Below are positions 22,714 to 30,138 of a stretch of DNA of 64,000 bases, piece by piece. Position numbers and translations under genes: made by a program. Location: assembly GCA_041169165.1 (NCBI GenBank), contig JBEEJN010000018.1, forward strand, positions 18,736-82,735. Direction: 5' to 3'. Position 1 is the first letter of the stretch, and each line of letters opens with the position of its first letter. This DNA is from Pseudomonadota bacterium. GTDB lineage: Bacteria > Pseudomonadota > Gammaproteobacteria > Burkholderiales > Burkholderiaceae_C. The notes beneath the pieces were generated by a model, which saw only the letters and a list, made by a program, of their open reading frames with translations, was not told the origin of the DNA and searched no databases.

Positions 22714-23256
22714 ATGAGCCTGTTCAACGTCACGCCCGGCAAGAAAGCACCCGAAGAGTTCAACGTGATCATCGAGATCCCGATGAACGCCGACCCGATC
22801 AAGTACGAGGTCGACAAGGAGTCCGGCGCGATGTTCGTCGACCGCTTCATGACCACGGCCATGCACTACCCGTGCAACTACGGCTATGTGCCCATGACGC
22901 TGTCGGACGACGGTGACCCGGTGGACGTGCTGGTCATCACCCCCTACGCCCTGACCCCGGGTGTGGTCGTGACCTGCCGCGCCATCGGCGTGCTCAAGAT
23001 GGACGACGAAGCCGGCGGCGACGCCAAGCTGCTGGCCGTGCCCATCACCAAGGTGTGCCCGATCTATTCGCACTGGAACAAGCCCGAGGACATCAACCAG
23101 ATGCGCCTGAAGGCCATCCAGCACTTCTTCGAGCACTACAAGGACCTCGAAGCCGGCAAGTGGGTCAAGGTGCAGGGCTGGGAAGGCCCCGAGTCGGCCA
23201 AGAAGGAAATCCTGGACGGCATCGCCAACTACAACAAGGCGAATGCCAAGGCCTGA
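22714..23256 (+). CDS. ppa: Soluble inorganic pyrophosphatase (family I)
   Basis: [31 protein letters not shown]. Confidence 0.96.
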
Positions 23257-23311
23257 GTGAAAGCCTGCGCTTAGCTGGCAGACTGGCAATGTATTGCTAG
23301 TCACACGATGG

Positions 23312-23341
23312 ATACGGCCCTGCGGGGCCGTATTTCATTTT
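23312..23341 (+). terminator. Rho-independent terminator after ppa
   Basis: ATACGGCCC-tgcg-GGGCCGTAT followed by TTCATTTT. Confidence 0.8.
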
Positions 23342-23410
23342 CAGACTCATCAAGGCCTGCAGACTGCGACGCGCTTGACCGTAGTGCACGAACTTCGGTG
23401 GCCCCCAATA

Positions 23411-23424
23411 AGAAATTAATTTCT
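23411..23424. promoter_or_regulatory. Perfect 14-bp AT-rich palindrome upstream of the helicase-nuclease gene
   Basis: AGAAATTAATTTCT, immediately followed by TCGTCT-atc-AGACGA. Confidence 0.45.
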
Positions 23425-23593
23425 CGTCTATCAGACGAAACGCTGTCACGTGCAGTCGGGTTGCTAGCGTCATAGTTGTATGGTTCTACGAAAGCATCCT
23501 TCCATTGATTTACTGTCGGGGATGTAAGTCTTGCGAGCAGCGCGTCGGCAGTTTGCGGATTGCCGGGCTAAGGTCAACCAGGGGAGCCAAGAA

Positions 23594-26500
23594 GTGATTG
23601 AAGGTGCCGAACGCATCATTGACCTGCTGACCTACATCGAGCAGGTGGAAATGCTGAGGGCCAAGCCGGCCTTTGAAATCCCGAAGGACGCACCGTTCCT
23701 GGCGCACCAGCACGAGATGGTGACATTGCCGGATGTCGCGTTCAACCTGCAGGTCGACGGCGACGACGTCTGGCTACGGTTTCCGCGCTTGCAGGAGATT
23801 GCGCCACCCGAGCTGGATGACGCTCTCAAGCCCTGGGTGACGTTGCCCAAGTCGCCCGACAAGACGCCCGAATTGCGAACCGAGCTCGTTACCTACGAGG
23901 GTCGCGACGTTTCCAGCCGGGCTGCACTCGCCGACCACCCGGAAATCCAGCAGGCCTTTGACTGGTACGTCGAGTACCAGTGGACGCCCTGGGCGGGCGC
24001 AGAGCGGCCACGCCGGCGCGCCATCGCCTGCTACACCCGCCTGTTCGCACTGCAGCAGACCATTGCCTCGGAGGGCGCGGAGACCCCCCTCGAACTCGCC
24101 TGGGGCATCGGCTACGCCACGTGGAAGAAGGAGGGCTTCGGCGCCGCGCTGAAGTACCCGCTCATCGTCCAGGCTTGCGACGTCACGCTCAACGAGAAGA
24201 CCTTCGAGCTGGAGATTCGCCCGCGCAGCGCCGAACCCCGCCTGGAGGTCGACTGCTTCGCCAAGATGGACGTGGCCGGCGTCCCCGCACTGGAGGCCAC
24301 CTGGCGAACCACGCTGGCCACCGCGGCGAGCCGCATCAATCCCTTCGAGCCGGGCACCTACGACGGCATGCTCAAGGCCGCTGTCAGCTACCTGGACCCT
24401 GCAGGTACCTACGAGACCCGGGGCAGCACCGACCCGCTGCCTTTGCCGACAGACAAGCTGCACATCACCAACAACTGGGTGCTGTTCGCCCGCAAGCGCT
24501 CGGTAGACATCTTCCTCGAGGACATCCGTCGGCTGAAGACCAAGGTCGAGGAGGCCACGGCCCTGCCCGGCGTCATTCGCAAGTTCGTCGAACACGGTGA
24601 CGACACCGTGCGCATCCAGCCCGAACAGCCTTACCGCGGTCTGGCCACCAGCGACGCCGGCGGCAACGCGATGGAGCTGTACTTCCCGATGGCATACAAC
24701 GATGAGCAGGTCTCCATCGTCCAGAAGCTGCATCACAACGACGGGGTGGTCGTGCAGGGCCCACCCGGAACCGGCAAGACGCACACGATTGCCAATGTCA
24801 TCTGCCATTACCTGGCGCAGGGCAAGCGCGTCCTGGTGACGGCCAAGGGCGAGTCGGCCCTGGCGGTGCTGCAGGAGAAGTTGCCCGAGGGCATCCGTCC
24901 GTTGAGCGTGGCGCTGCTGTCCGACGAACGGGACGGCATGAAGCAGTTCGAGCATGCCATCCAGATCATCGCGTCCAGCGTCGCCGGCATCAATCCCACG
25001 CGGTCGGCCGCGGCCATCGCCGCCGCGGAGGACAAGCTCAACCACCTGCATGCCAAGATTTCTCAGGTAGACCGGAATGTGGCGGCGCATGCCCACCGGC
25101 ACATGGAGAAGTTCTCCTACCAGGGCAAGGACCTGATGTCGGAGGAACTGGCCAGGCTGGCCCTGGAGCAGGCCGAGCAGCACCAGTGGTTCGACGACGA
25201 GCCGCCAGCATCCAAGGATGGCGTCCTGCCGGTGGACGAGGCCGCCGTCAACAGCTTGCGCCGAGCGCGCCTGGCCGTCGGCGCAGACATCGTATACGTG
25301 GGCTGCACGCTGCCGGCCGCCGATGCCTTCCCGCTGTGGAATGACCTGGTCGGGCTGCACCGGGACCTGGTCAAGGCCAAGGCCATCGACTCCAGCGTGG
25401 TGCATGGCAACACCCTGGCCTTGGTCGATGCGCAGCTGTCCACCTTCGAGAAGGCCCAGGCGCTGGTCAAGTTCCTGGATGAGCGACTGACCCTCAAGAC
25501 CAAGTTGCTGGGTGCGCGGGCGCCGTGGCTGGATGCGCTGAGCCGCAGGATGGGCGACCTGCAGCCTGCCGACCCGGTCCTTCAGTCACTGTTTGCGGTC
25601 TGCGACGAGGTCCGCAAGCTTGAGCGCGAGCGACGGGAACTCCTGGGCAAGGCCGTCTCGGTGCCGCCTGACGCCGAGCAGAGCGCAGACTTTGCCAACG
25701 CTCTGAGCCGCCTGGTGGCGGGGAAGTCAGCCTTCGCCATTCCGTTTGGTTTGCTCCAGGGGGATGCTCGAAAGCTGGTGGCGGCCGTCACGGTCCAAGG
25801 CGTCCCGCCAGCCGGCCGCCCAGAGTGGGAATTGGTCGAGCAGGCAGTCGCGTGGCGACTGGCCGCCCGCAAGGTGCTGGCCCGGTGGGCGGCGCTCGCC
25901 GGCGAGTTCGGGCTGGAGCCCGGGCACGGCGCCATCGATGACTGGTTCCGCCTCGTCGCCCAATGGGAGTCGACCGTCGAGGGCGTCCGCAAGCTTCGGT
26001 TCGACTTCGACGCGCACCTTCATGGCCGATTGGCCGAGGTCTTCGGCAAGCCCGTCGCTGACAAGGTGCACGACGGTGGTGAAGCCTTCGTCGCCAACGC
26101 TTTTGCCAGCCTGCAGGCCCACCTGGACAAGAGCCGCCTGGCCTACGCACTGCGGCGTGTCCAGGAACTGCTGCGTTTGCTCGACGGGCACCAAGGCGGC
26201 ATCGTCGATGAACTGCGCGGTTTCCTCGCGGAGTCGCTGGGACGCCCGACGGCCGACGAAGGGGTGCTGCAGACCACCTGGCAAGCCCTTCAGTCGGAGC
26301 TGTCCCGGCTGACCCTGTTGCTCCCGTCGCTCGCGGAAATCGACCGCGTGACGGCAGCGCTCACCGCGGCCGGCGCCACACGGTGGGCGGCCAAGCTGCG
26401 GACGCAAGCGGCAAGCTCCGACCTGGACACGCTCACACCGCCGACCTGGGCCGAGGCCTGGGCCTGGCGCCAAGCCGTGATGTTCCTCGACAGCATCGAC

Positions 26501-28096
26501 GGTCATCACACGCTGAGGGAACTGTTCGCCGAGCGCAAACAGCTGACCACCACCTTGGCGCGGACCTACCAGGAATTGGTGGCCGAGAAGACGTGGCTTG
26601 GGGTGTTCAACAACTCCCCAGATTCTGTGCGTCGAGCGCTGCAAGCCTACCTCGCGGCCATTAGAGCAATCGGCAAAGGTACTGGTGTGGGAGCCGCCAT
26701 GTACCGCCGCGATGCAAGGAACGCGATGGCACGAGCCTACTCGGCAGTACCCTGCTGGGTCTTGCCGCATTGGCGTGTGTCCGAATCAATACCGTCTGAT
26801 GTTGGAGTGTTCGACCTTGTGGTGGTTGACGAGGCGTCGCAGTCCGATATCTCATGCCTCCCTGCCATATTGCGTGGCAAGAAGCTTTTGATCGTCGGCG
26901 ATGACAAGCAGGTTTCTCCTTCCGCCGTTGGCTTAGCGACGCAGGTCGTCCTCAGCCTTCGGGCGCGCTTTCTTCAAGAGATTCCTCAGGGTGAACTGAT
27001 GACCCCGGAGAGGTCGTTTTACGACTTGGCGCAAGTGGTCTTCGCCGGCAACTCGGTCATGCTCAAGGAGCACTTCCGCTGCGTGTCGCCCATCATCGAG
27101 TTCTCGAACCGCGAGTTCTATCAGGGTGACATCCGGCCGCTGCGTGTGCCCAAGGCCAACGAGCGCCTGGACCCGCCACTGGTCGACGTGTTCGTGAAGG
27201 GAGGCTTCCGCAAGGGCGACGTCAACGAGGCGGAGGCACTCGCCATCCTGGAGGAAATCCGGGCCATCCTGCGGGACCCGCAGTTCGACGGTCGGTCCAT
27301 CGGCGTGGTCACCTTGCTGGGCACCGCCCAGGCCGCGCTCATCCATGAACTCGTCGCGGAGACGATTCCGCAGGGCGACATCGTCGCCCGCAAGATAGCC
27401 GTGGGCCCACCTCCGGTCTTCCAGGGCCGCGAGCGCGACATCATGATGGTGTCAATGGTGTTAGCGCAAGGTGACCGCACCGCGGCGAACAAGGCCGACA
27501 TCCAGCAGCGAATTAACGTGGCGATGTCCCGCGCGCGCGACCGGATGTACCTGTTCCGCTCGGTGCCGGACAACCAGTTCTCCGAGGATTCGCTCAGCGG
27601 CCGCATCATTCGCCACTTCCAGCAGCCTTTCCAGCGAGATGCCAAGAAGGTGCAGTCGTTGCGTGACCTGTGCGAGTCCGGCTCCGAGCGCGAGATGTTC
27701 GACGAACTGGTAAAGCGTGGCTACCGCGTGCAACCCCAGGTGCCTTGTGGTGGTTACCGCATTGACTTCGTGGTGGAAGGCAATGAGGGGCGCCGCCTGG
27801 CTGTCGAGTGTGACGGCGACCGCTTCCACGGGCCAGGCCAGTGGCAACACGACATGGTTCGGCAGCGCGTTCTAGAACGCGCTGGCTGGACCTTCTGGCG
27901 CTGCTTTGCCTCAAGTTTCGTGCGGCGCCGAGACGAGGTGGTGCAGGACCTGATGGACACCCTGCACCGGCTGGGCATCGAACCCCTGGGCGCCGACGTG
28001 GTCGACAACACCGTGTGGGTGCACCATAAGGAAGTGGACCCGTTCGCCGTCGACGCCGATGAGGCCGACCCAGCCGAAGAGCAGGAGGTCGCATGA
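23594..28096 (+). CDS. Large SF1 (UPF1/DNA2-like, AAA_11/AAA_12) helicase with C-terminal DUF559/MTES_1575-like nuclease
   Basis: GPPGTGKT (24758-24781), DEASQ (from 26828), GDDKQ, EHFRC, FQGRERD, NVAMSRAR, then IDFVV...AVECDGDRFH...RQRVLERAGW; RBS GGGGAG before GTG 23594. Confidence 0.88.
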   Translation: MIEGAERIIDLLTYIEQVEMLRAKPAFEIPKDAPFLAHQHEMVTLPDVAFNLQVDGDDVWLRFPRLQEIAPPELDDALKPWVTLPKSPDKTPELRTELVTYEGRDVSSRAALADHPEIQQAFDWYVEYQWTPWAGAERPRRRAIACYTRLFALQQTIASEGAETPLELAWGIGYATWKKEGFGAALKYPLIVQACDVTLNEKTFELEIRPRSAEPRLEVDCFAKMDVAGVPALEATWRTTLATAASRINPFEPGTYDGMLKAAVSYLDPAGTYETRGSTDPLPLPTDKLHITNNWVLFARKRSVDIFLEDIRRLKTKVEEATALPGVIRKFVEHGDDTVRIQPEQPYRGLATSDAGGNAMELYFPMAYNDEQVSIVQKLHHNDGVVVQGPPGTGKTHTIANVICHYLAQGKRVLVTAKGESALAVLQEKLPEGIRPLSVALLSDERDGMKQFEHAIQIIASSVAGINPTRSAAAIAAAEDKLNHLHAKISQVDRNVAAHAHRHMEKFSYQGKDLMSEELARLALEQAEQHQWFDDEPPASKDGVLPVDEAAVNSLRRARLAVGADIVYVGCTLPAADAFPLWNDLVGLHRDLVKAKAIDSSVVHGNTLALVDAQLSTFEKAQALVKFLDERLTLKTKLLGARAPWLDALSRRMGDLQPADPVLQSLFAVCDEVRKLERERRELLGKAVSVPPDAEQSADFANALSRLVAGKSAFAIPFGLLQGDARKLVAAVTVQGVPPAGRPEWELVEQAVAWRLAARKVLARWAALAGEFGLEPGHGAIDDWFRLVAQWESTVEGVRKLRFDFDAHLHGRLAEVFGKPVADKVHDGGEAFVANAFASLQAHLDKSRLAYALRRVQELLRLLDGHQGGIVDELRGFLAESLGRPTADEGVLQTTWQALQSELSRLTLLLPSLAEIDRVTAALTAAGATRWAAKLRTQAASSDLDTLTPPTWAEAWAWRQAVMFLDSIDGHHTLRELFAERKQLTTTLARTYQELVAEKTWLGVFNNSPDSVRRALQAYLAAIRAIGKGTGVGAAMYRRDARNAMARAYSAVPCWVLPHWRVSESIPSDVGVFDLVVVDEASQSDISCLPAILRGKKLLIVGDDKQVSPSAVGLATQVVLSLRARFLQEIPQGELMTPERSFYDLAQVVFAGNSVMLKEHFRCVSPIIEFSNREFYQGDIRPLRVPKANERLDPPLVDVFVKGGFRKGDVNEAEALAILEEIRAILRDPQFDGRSIGVVTLLGTAQAALIHELVAETIPQGDIVARKIAVGPPPVFQGRERDIMMVSMVLAQGDRTAANKADIQQRINVAMSRARDRMYLFRSVPDNQFSEDSLSGRIIRHFQQPFQRDAKKVQSLRDLCESGSEREMFDELVKRGYRVQPQVPCGGYRIDFVVEGNEGRRLAVECDGDRFHGPGQWQHDMVRQRVLERAGWTFWRCFASSFVRRRDEVVQDLMDTLHRLGIEPLGADVVDNTVWVHHKEVDPFAVDADEADPAEEQEVA

Positions 28097-28725
28097 CCAT
28101 GCCCCGCCCACTCATGCATTTACGAATTGGGGACCTCGAGGAGATGTTTGCCTCTGCCGCGGGCAAACCTGACGTGCTACGGCAACTGGAGCACGAACTT
28201 CAATTTCGCCAGGTGCCACGAGCCCTGACTCTGCTAGACAAGGTGCAACGTTCGAAGGCAGCGGCAGTAGCTGGAAGGCCCGTCGAACCTCTGGCGCCAG
28301 CAACACCGGTCGCAACGCCGGAGAAGCCTGCAGAGGCACCTGTGCAGAACGCCGCGCCTCCCGCAGTTCAGCTGTCGCTCATCAGCACCCCGGCACTGTC
28401 AGTCCAGCCAGAGCGTCGGCCGCTGATCAGCGCGCTCACGTCAACCTCTACACCAGCCCAGCCACCCCGCCCCGGCGTACCGGCTCCGGCGCGGCCCGTT
28501 CCGCCGGCAATGTCCCTTGCCGATGCCTGCCGGCTCCTGAACGTGGCACCGGGAGCCAGTTGGGAGACCATTGAGCGCGCGCGACGCGAAGCGGTGCAAA
28601 AGTCGTCGCCTTTAGGAACAGGGACATCAGACGCGCATCGTGGGCCTGCGCTGGCGGCGGCCCGATTGGCAAACTCTGCGTATGCGGCGTTGGCTGCGAT
28701 GCGATGCACTTCAATATTGGACTAG
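28093..28725 (+). CDS. Hypothetical protein: short helical N-domain, Pro/Ala linker, C-terminal J-domain-like region lacking HPD
   Basis: ATGA overlap with the helicase stop; LADACRLLNVAPGASWETIERARR...QKSSP...ANSAYAAL follows the J-domain pattern with SSP at the HPD position. Confidence 0.7.
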   Translation: MTMPRPLMHLRIGDLEEMFASAAGKPDVLRQLEHELQFRQVPRALTLLDKVQRSKAAAVAGRPVEPLAPATPVATPEKPAEAPVQNAAPPAVQLSLISTPALSVQPERRPLISALTSTSTPAQPPRPGVPAPARPVPPAMSLADACRLLNVAPGASWETIERARREAVQKSSPLGTGTSDAHRGPALAAARLANSAYAALAAMRCTSILD

Positions 28726-28824
28726 GCCACGAAATGAAGATGGTTGACCAAGCGTTCAAATCGGAAGCAGCGGGTGTTCAGAGTGTTCGATCTAGCTGAT
28801 GCACGACATCGTTGGGCACCCGCC

Positions 28825-30138
28825 TCAGGCCCTGAACGGACTGTGCGCCTGCAATTCGTCCAAATAACTTGCCACGCCGCTGCGTTCGCGTTCCAGGAAG
28901 CGCGCGACGGCGCTGGAGAACTCGCGGTCGGCCAGCCAGTGCGCTGACCAGGTCGCGACCGGCATCAGGCCGCGCGCGAGCTTGTGTTCGCCCTGGGCGC
29001 CGCCCTCGAAGCGCTGCCAGCCGTGTTCGACGCACCAGCGCAGCGGCTCGTGGTAGCAGGCGGCGAAGTGCAGATGGTTGATGCGTTCGGTCGCGCCCCA
29101 GTAGCGGCCCCAGGCGGTGCGGGTGGTGTCGTCCAGGGCGACCAACGACGCGGCCACACGCTCGCCCTCGCGGCGGGCGATGAACATCAGCCACAGCTCG
29201 GGCAGCGCGGCCCGGGTGCTGTCGAAGAAGGCGCGGCTCAGATAGGGCGTCGAGTGGTGCTCGCGGTAGGTGCTGCAGTAGCAGCGGTAGAAGTGGTCCC
29301 AGTCGTCCGTGCTGATGTCGCTGCCGCGCCTGACCTCGAACGTCACCCCGGCGCGCGCGACATAGCCGCGTTCCTGGGTGAGTTTCTTGCGCTTGTCGCG
29401 GGTCAGGCTGGCCAGGTAGTCGTCCCAATCGCGGTAGGGCGCCGGCCCGGCGTCGTTGGTGACGCCTTGGACCGTGCCGTTCGTGGCGCCGCGATTGCTC
29501 CAGTGGAACTGCACGCCCTGGCGCAGCAACCAGCCGGCCTGGCGGGCGGCAGCCTGGTCGGCCTCGTCCATGAACAGCAGATGGGCCGATGACCAGCCCT
29601 GCTCGCGCGCAAGCGTGCTCATGCCTTGCAGCAGCGCCTGGCGGGTTTCGGCGTCGCGCGCCAGCAGGCGGCTGCCGGGCACCGGGGTGAAGGGCACGGC
29701 GCTCAGCAGCTTGGGGTAGTAGTCGCGCCCGGCGCGCTGCCAGGCGTCGGCCCAGGCCCAATCGAAGACATATTCGCCGTAGGAATGCGACTTGAGGTAC
29801 AGCACACAGGCGCCGCACAGCTCGGCCCGGCCGCGATCGTCTGCAGAGGCGAGCGCATGCAGCAGCAGGTAAAGCGGCTGCCAGCCGGTATCCGCTACCG
29901 CCGAGCCGCTGCTTTGCAGCGCTGCCAGGTAGGCGTGGCGCATGAAGGGTGTGGGATGGGGGGCGGCGTCGACCAGGGCGTCCCAGGCAGCCGCGTCGAT
30001 GTGGGCCAGGTCTTGCGCCACCTGCAGGCTGGCTTGCACCGTCGTGGGCGTGGCCCCGCCGTTACCATTCCCGGCCGGCGTTGTGGTCGCTGACCCCTGC
30101 TGCGCGTCGGCGGCCTGGGCTGCTGTCGCTTGCGTCAT
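28825..30138 (-). CDS. GNAT family / FemAB-related protein (DUF482)
   Basis: YLKSHSYGEYVFDWAW, PFTPVPGSRLL, GRYWG, LHFAACY, FEGGAQGEHKLARG; start uncertain. Confidence 0.9.
   Translation of the reverse strand: MTQATAAQAADAQQGSATTTPAGNGNGGATPTTVQASLQVAQDLAHIDAAAWDALVDAAPHPTPFMRHAYLAALQSSGSAVADTGWQPLYLLLHALASADDRGRAELCGACVLYLKSHSYGEYVFDWAWADAWQRAGRDYYPKLLSAVPFTPVPGSRLLARDAETRQALLQGMSTLAREQGWSSAHLLFMDEADQAAARQAGWLLRQGVQFHWSNRGATNGTVQGVTNDAGPAPYRDWDDYLASLTRDKRKKLTQERGYVARAGVTFEVRRGSDISTDDWDHFYRCYCSTYREHHSTPYLSRAFFDSTRAALPELWLMFIARREGERVAASLVALDDTTRTAWGRYWGATERINHLHFAACYHEPLRWCVEHGWQRFEGGAQGEHKLARGLMPVATWSAHWLADREFSSAVARFLERERSGVASYLDELQAHSPFRA

Follow-up and report, generated by a model that had tools for sequence, protein, structure and literature searches.

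Positions 23594 to 28725 of the DNA analysed here, a 64,000-nucleotide stretch of contig JBEEJN010000018.1 that we refer to as the window, contain two translationally coupled genes: a large helicase-nuclease (protein P0001) and a 210-amino-acid (aa) partner (P0002). We consider it reasonably probable that the pair is an accessory, horizontally moved defence-type module, with the helicase-nuclease as effector and the small protein as a regulatory or sensor subunit. The module is most likely an undescribed defence variant of the Prometheus/Hhe kind; its partner family is likewise undescribed, and its adaptor motif is new. Public annotation of its genes is limited to "AAA family ATPase" or "hypothetical protein". 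Searches of the open-access literature on J-domain or DnaJ proteins with a defence helicase, and on MTES_1575, gave no description of a helicase paired with a J-like partner, in agreement with an earlier note on this DNA, whose author knew of no described system with this partner.

That note had read from the sequence a ~1500-aa UPF1/DNA2-type helicase with Walker A at 24758 and Walker B at 26828 (~690 aa apart), a terminal DUF559/MTES_1575-like nuclease, ATGA coupling to a 210-aa gene for a degenerate J-domain-like protein, and an AT-rich leader placed between the ppa terminator and a converging GNAT gene. All of these features were recovered in our analysis, and the measurements are given below. 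The note's reading of a degenerate J domain also holds, and the three computational outcomes that would have spoken against its interpretation were not seen: the helicase is no core gene of the genus, the partner does co-occur with it, and relatives do adjoin known defence genes.

The helicase-nuclease and its family

The helicase-nuclease gene occupies 23594..28096 on the forward strand, as do all features of the two genes described here. Its open reading frame (ORF) can start at TTG 23531 or GTG 23594, and the GTG is the likely start because AGGGGAG lies 8 nt upstream and the orthologue in the closest relative, a congener (G001), begins at the same residue. The resulting 1500-aa protein opens with an alpha/beta domain of ~370 aa (23594..24700), conserved across the family and without a Pfam match, followed by a superfamily 1B (SF1B) Upf1/DNA2-like helicase. 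From Walker A (GPPGTGKT, 24758..24781, K395 counted from the GTG) to the aspartate of Walker B (nt 26828, in VVVDEASQ) is 689 aa. Between the two motifs lies an all-helical insert (24990..26800, approximate limits) which aligns with the insert of the Prometheus protein ProA, and Walker B itself (VDEASQ, 26825..26842) contains D1079 and E1080. Helicase domain 2A (AAA_12, 27047..27553) has QGRERD and NVAMSRAR motifs, and an MTES_1575/DUF559 Vsr-family endonuclease (27686..27964) follows, leaving a C-terminus of ~40 aa with no DUF3320 match.

Pfam matches to P0001 were AAA_11 (1.1e-18), AAA_12 (1.3e-15), MTES_1575 (PF18741, 4.9e-30, aa 1386-1478) and DUF559 (2.8e-7). Across six homologues there is no variation in any helicase motif or in the nuclease D..ECDGD residues (D1391, E1405 and D1407). 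The closest solved relatives by sequence are the SF1B helicases IGHMBP2, UPF1, SEN1 and DNA2. In an AlphaFold (AF2) model of a relative, the insert between Walker A and B is all-helical, and Foldseek with a 1200-aa model of a natural fusion (see below) matched only Upf1 and Sen1, with none for the N-domain. MTES_1575 has been defined as a Vsr-family restriction endonuclease and DUF3320 as a winged helix-turn-helix (HTH) domain (PMC3710099).

The earlier note took the protein for a relative of Hhe with an added partner. The relatedness and the partner both stand, but the closest known family is ProA/PDC-S37, not Hhe, and the protein is a member of neither. The ProA profile (NF058533) gives 229.6 bits, with a cut-off of 1500, in one stretch which includes the insert (aa 348-1481, profile positions 611-1706). 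Profile positions 1-610 have no match, and Pfam finds no DUF4011 in P0001. With PADLOC's PDC-S37 model, on which a true member scores 1243 bits, P0001 reaches 195.8 bits over aa 859-1481, and Hhe (NF042953) gives 141.8 bits, with a cut-off of 2000, over aa 1063-1485 only; PADLOC's Hhe model (PDLC02194) likewise matches only the C-terminal part, at 2e-32. An hhalign comparison with a true ProA covers only the Walker B-to-nuclease part of P0001. We therefore rejected P0001 as a member of Hhe, ProA or PDC-S37: the scores are far below the cut-offs or true-member scores, and DUF4011 and DUF3320 are missing.

Because scores against ProA are low across clades (220-232 bits for each of the representatives taken from four further clades of the family) and the DUF4011 N-region is absent, we place the window helicase, on profile scores, in a large, horizontally spread sister family of Prometheus/Hhe. 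DUF3320 is found weakly at the C-terminus of long members of this family (e.g., L051) and in none of the window's clade. The true ProA used for comparison, a 2205-aa protein in genome G248 (locus L117), scores 2313.7 bits against ProA and 1243 bits against PDC-S37; since it scores highly on both models, NCBIfam ProA and PADLOC PDC-S37 are two names for the same family.

Prometheus is reported to be a defence that consists of a single protein, has been validated experimentally and needs all four of its domains (PMC13700489). The window protein shares its order of parts, i.e., an SF1 DNA2/Upf1-like helicase with a large Walker A-B insert and then an MTES_1575 Vsr-type nuclease. Unlike ProA, it has a different ~370-aa N-domain, lacks DUF4011 and DUF3320, is ~400 aa shorter and has a coupled partner, joined in the ancestral form of the module by a ribbon-helix-helix (RHH)-like gene. 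Hhe, a single large defence protein, has the same helicase domain 2A and Vsr/DUF559-type nuclease; the window protein differs in aligning with it over the C-terminal ~420 aa only, in lacking DUF4011 and in having a partner gene. Mokosh shares the Upf1-like helicase core, which the Mokosh profile matches at 1e-31 (core only). Unlike Mokosh (MkoA/MkoB, MkoC), the window protein has no phospholipase D (PLD) nuclease, its nuclease being Vsr-type.

The partner protein and its coupling to the helicase

The partner gene (28093..28725) begins where the helicase gene ends, its ATG overlapping the helicase TGA as ATGA (28093-28096), with GGAGG preceding its start. Its product has no match in Pfam (E<=0.1), PADLOC or NCBIfam. 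An alignment of 27 close homologues is conserved over ~55 aa in the N-terminal part and ~70 aa in the C-terminal part, with a variable Pro/Ala linker in between. In the AF2 model of P0002, the three-helix N-module has a predicted local distance difference test score (pLDDT) >90, aa 64-120 are disordered, and aa 141-209 have a pLDDT of ~95. The first part, which we call the N-motif (28099..28275, RPLM..i.dLE.mF....vL.qLEhELqfRqvPRAl.LL.kV), is common to all arrangements described below. The Pro/Ala-rich linker (28282..28512) is poorly conserved in the alignment and disordered in the predicted model.

The C-terminal domain (28513..28719) is predicted to have a J-domain fold. Its Foldseek matches were almost all J domains, with the HPD-less Tim16 on top, at probabilities of 0.9-1.0, target-normalised template modelling scores of 0.5-0.69 and a root-mean-square deviation of ~2 A; the E-values of 0.4-3 are weak because the domain is short. 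Where J domains have the tripeptide HPD, the window copy has SSP (28603-28611, aa 171-173). Its clade has SSP[L/Q/I/F], and more distant members have HPD, HPE or HPS. A J-like domain was found in 127 of 173 partner-type proteins, with HPE in 20, HPD in 15, SPL in 12, HPS in 9 and others besides, and domains with a relaxed HPD (HPE, HPS, SPL, SPA, etc.) keep the fold, the proline and the basic residues of helix II. Two homologues (P0025 and P0160) have a precomputed Pfam DnaJ match, and some partners combine two N-motifs and a Zn ribbon with a canonical "QQYHPDK" J domain. The predicted helical fold of the window's C-domain is thus that of J-domain and J-like proteins (DnaJ, PF00226; Tim16/Pam16). 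Unlike DnaJ, the window partner has SSP, no Pfam DnaJ match, no G/F or substrate-binding domains, and a new N-motif.

A profile of the N-motif found 1609 cluster representatives (468 at E<=1e-10), mostly 180-210 aa long, and had no match among Pfam, NCBIfam or PADLOC models. Three metagenomic proteins (P0047, P0155 and P0158, 566-746 aa) have three to four tandem N-motifs and a C-terminus resembling sigma-70 region 4 or a LuxR-type HTH. The partner gene has a third-codon-position GC content (GC3) of 0.63, compared with 0.83-0.94 for neighbouring genes. Despite this low value, we rejected the possibility of a chance ORF, as both ends of the protein are conserved in >1000 clusters and its fold is confidently predicted. 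The partner is diverging much faster than the helicase (59% vs 87% identity to G001).

The partner accompanies the helicase wherever there was sufficient context to see both. In the helicase tree, partner-bearing helicases form one supported clade in which all 16 rows have a partner, 14 with the J-like domain and two with the N-motif only. The partner directly follows the helicase in every long contig examined (L013, L014, L016 and L017), in L114 and the P0029 contig (both HPD forms), and in G133 and G242. It follows the helicase at 13 genome loci, L038 and L049 having a short ORF with the N-motif only, and at a fourteenth, low-coverage locus (L045) the J-like part alone was detected. The same order occurs on the Variovorax paradoxus plasmid CP063168.1, where the partner (L119 11513-12070) has the N-motif and a J-like domain with AHPS; this gene has no entry in the PLSDB gene table, which is itself incomplete.

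In other clades, the N-motif meets the helicase in different ways. An upstream gene can encode it, as part of a protein that also carries a Zn ribbon and, at its C-terminus, a transmembrane (TM) helix (L063, L066 and the P0043 contig), or it can be fused to the helicase N-terminus (L070, L099 and L109). MkoC-like SF1 helicases of ~1160 aa without a nuclease, in G317 and G339 (L115 3515-6985, reverse strand, PADLOC MkoC 3e-74; L116 3171-6680, reverse strand), likewise have it fused at the N-terminus, where it lies outside the region matched by the MkoC profile. A similar frame in G248 has only 628-663 aa, is apparently truncated, and adjoins ProA and Dsr2. The helicase-associated part of the partner is the N-motif, not the J-like domain. 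Given the natural fusions of N-motif and helicase, we argue that the N-motif would work on the helicase and that the C-terminal head would be exchangeable.

Some of these loci have further features. L117 (G248:C77:42000-60000) is a defence island with ProA, a Dsr2-like SIR2 protein and the truncated MkoC-like helicase with its N-motif. In L116, a 1508-aa gene adjoins the N-motif MkoC-like helicase. In the P0043 contig, the gene directly upstream of a 2121-aa fusion of helicase-MTES_1575 and ADP-ribosylglycohydrolase encodes a partner in which two N-motifs are combined with a Zn ribbon and a TM helix. Finally, a 397-aa HNH_2 gene which is not in the window starts <=40 nt after the partner in the metagenomic loci L013 and L014 (10590-11783) and L016 (10603-11796), perhaps as a fourth component of the module in this subclade.

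Most relatives have another gene ahead of the helicase. In G001, L035-L037, L047, L049, L114, L013, L016 and the Variovorax plasmid, the helicase gene starts at the end of, or inside, a conserved ORF of ~64 aa (..SFRVSP.FK.LLE.AA..E.RSLTNMLE..). Its matches to ribbon-helix-helix families are all sub-threshold (RHH_5 at 1.3e-4, plus TacA1, HicB and NikA). L017 keeps only the 3' part of this gene, and the window has no trace of it, with an AT-rich leader in its place. From this comparison, the module was ancestrally one of three genes, with the RHH-like gene lost in the window copy, and that loss suggests that regulation of the window copy has changed.

Distribution, insertion site and neighbours

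Of 41 related genomes, only the window genome and G001, whose helicase is 87% identical, have this helicase, which puts the pair in two of 25 genomes of the genus. A genome of another family (G027) has a 41% helicase relative without a partner, and the N-motif is present in 6 of 401 genomes of the order. The G001 pair is on another contig, just upstream of umuD- and umuC-like genes (L011 16775-18573), while its ppa and FemAB-like genes are 127 bp apart, i.e., an empty site. We therefore rejected the idea that the helicase belongs to the core genome of the genus (two of 25 genomes, differing loci, an empty site in G001), and the pair is accessory in the genus.

Around the cassette, the window's gene order is hppA, ppa, cassette, a converging FemAB_like/GNAT-fold gene and nadE. 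The left flank is ppa (inorganic pyrophosphatase, 22765..23256, forward strand), with a visible hairpin and T-run directly 3' of its end at 23256, and the right flank is the FemAB_like gene (28825..30006, reverse strand). The leader between ppa and the helicase gene (23258..23593) has 52.7% GC, compared with 68.1% for the whole window, and is not homologous to the G001 locus. A promoter scan of the locus found no sigma-70 consensus, and the terminator call was uninformative. When the two genomes are aligned, window positions 23258-28832 replace ~115 bp of the G001 empty site, and homology between the two cassettes is confined to 23579-28697, i.e., the two genes.

The earlier note also proposed an insertion hotspot between ppa and the GNAT gene, and this is only partly borne out. 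The varying cargo of some congeners in the ppa-FemAB interval or on its FemAB side supports it. In other congeners, the interval is 0.1-13 kb long and contains an SbmA/BacA-type ABC transporter and a DUF1615 lipoprotein. The cargo beside the FemAB-like gene includes an AAA_21/AAA_15 ATPase pair in G005 (L022 1352-3050, with a 196-aa partner to the ATPase), a PIN toxin in G023 (L026 1453-1833), a HepT toxin in G012 (L021 2533-2928) and a large signalling protein in G003.

Beyond the genus, a survey with one genome per species found at least 578 helicase relatives in many phyla, of which the best 80 were kept. Near-identical proteins occur in different classes of the helicase tree (e.g., in a betaproteobacterium and Xanthomonas maliensis), which indicates that horizontal transfer of the family is frequent. 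Relatives were also found in 42 plasmid records, where annotation goes no further than "AAA family ATPase", "AAA domain-containing protein" or "DUF3320 domain-containing protein".

Relatives adjoin known defence genes, in a sample of loci taken without matched controls. Their neighbours include JetD/Wadjet, SIR2 with AAA_13, HNH, Abi_2, SMODS, Fic, Mrr and RmuC, as well as the Tn7-like transposition genes TniQ, TniB and TnsB. PADLOC also identified DrmD, LmuA, a CBASS endonuclease-SAVED effector, a PD-T4-6-type kinase and PDC-S06; the DrmD, LmuA and CBASS matches are given without a particular locus because PADLOC on the ten next-largest neighbour proteins gave no match. The module of the Variovorax plasmid adjoins Wadjet-like genes (AAA ATPase and DUF4194) and rmuC.

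Interpretation and alternatives

If the pair is a defence module, the large protein would act as an ATP-driven SF1B helicase-nuclease, built like ProA and Hhe, which translocates on invading nucleic acid and cuts it. The N-motif of the partner would dock on the helicase, and the flexible Pro/Ala linker would tether the J-fold head. That head may link the complex to the host Hsp70 (DnaK) or to a protein which imitates that link. The ancestral form would have had an HPD J domain and an RHH-like repressor gene ahead of the operon, with both the HPD histidine (now SSP) and the RHH-like gene lost from the window copy. The window's SSP head might bind DnaK without stimulating it, or serve as bait.

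Several results weigh against this interpretation. Although PADLOC and NCBIfam searches place P0001 near ProA, PDC-S37 and Hhe, none of their known defence models matches it at its cut-off. The window's own neighbours are housekeeping genes, and the insertion borders have no repeats, att-like sites, integrase, transposase or other mobility gene. No N-motif lies within 6 kb of approximately 58 of the 80 best helicase relatives, so the helicase family does not depend on the partner. One HPD partner, encoded on a 1.9-kb contig, is preceded by 0.9 kb of sequence in which there is no helicase, and a search of viral contigs gave no relative of the partner. Canonical HPD occurs in only ~12% of the sampled J-bearing partners, and since the window copy has SSP in its place, classical stimulation of DnaK by that copy is unlikely on its sequence.

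The module could instead be a toxin-antitoxin or addiction system, in which the partner and/or the RHH-like protein restrains a helicase-nuclease toxin, and which either stabilises mobile DNA or acts in abortive infection by damaging the cell's own DNA. A small RHH-like first gene which overlaps the next is typical of toxin-antitoxin operons, the partner is translationally coupled, relatives lie on plasmids and beside Tn7-like and Mob genes, and the corresponding spot in congeners carries PIN and HepT toxin genes. However, the window copy and L017 keep an intact helicase-nuclease without an intact RHH-like gene, most family members lack any partner, a 1500-aa ATP-driven translocase would be an atypical toxin, and the homologous ProA is a defence protein, so we consider this explanation unlikely. 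DnaJ and DnaK remodel nucleoprotein complexes at lambda and plasmid replication origins, and the pair might correspondingly be a non-immune factor of DNA or RNA metabolism (repair, R-loop or replication-fork processing) whose J-type partner recruits DnaK for such remodelling. The Upf1/Sen1/DNA2-type core, the umuD/umuC-like neighbours in G001 and the canonical HPD of some relatives would suit such a role, as would the relation of ProA to eukaryotic R-loop enzymes described in PMC13700489. A housekeeping role is nevertheless a poor fit to a gene pair with so patchy a distribution (2/25 genomes of the genus, 6/401 of the order), with transfer across phyla, with a locus that differs between congeners and with known defence systems repeatedly adjacent to its relatives, making this the least likely of the explanations considered here.

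A further possibility concerns the partner's head, which could be a decoy for a phage protein that targets host DnaJ/DnaK, in which case the helicase-nuclease would be released or activated once that phage protein is bound. The repeated relaxation of HPD, while the fold, proline and basic helix II residues are kept, is what one would expect of a decoy, and bNACHT25 provides a precedent in which immunity senses a perturbation of DnaJ (Conte et al. 2025, as cited in 10.64898/2026.01.04.697583). On the other side, no phage trigger is known, some members have a canonical HPD and a Zn ribbon as real co-chaperones do, and others have a Zn-ribbon/TM module in place of the J domain or no such head. 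We regard a decoy as quite unlikely. The comparison with bNACHT25 also applies to the defence module that we favour, where a tie between bacterial immunity and Hsp40/Hsp70 chaperones is likewise proposed. Unlike bNACHT25, an NLR-like protein which uses the host's DnaJ, the window module encodes its own J-type protein beside the helicase-nuclease.

Many phages depend on the DnaK/DnaJ chaperone network. This allows a bolder form of the favoured interpretation, which we put forward tentatively and hold to be doubtful as a whole: the module may be the first immune module with its own J-domain co-chaperone, its helicase-nuclease being under the control of, or guarding, the DnaK/DnaJ network. The N-motif would then serve as a portable adaptor, connecting accessory domains (a J domain or a Zn-ribbon/TM anchor) to SF1B defence helicases of at least two families, one Prometheus-like and one Mokosh-like. 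If this is true, the repeated decay of HPD would be a record of an arms race at the chaperone interface.

Prometheus and Hhe are large helicase-nuclease proteins known as single-protein defences. The sister family described here would add a dedicated small subunit to this kind of defence, and the module would be a new marker for defence-finding tools. As a J-type domain is the commonest form of the subunit's variable head, the family also raises the question of whether host chaperones serve these helicase-nucleases as a sensor or a switch.

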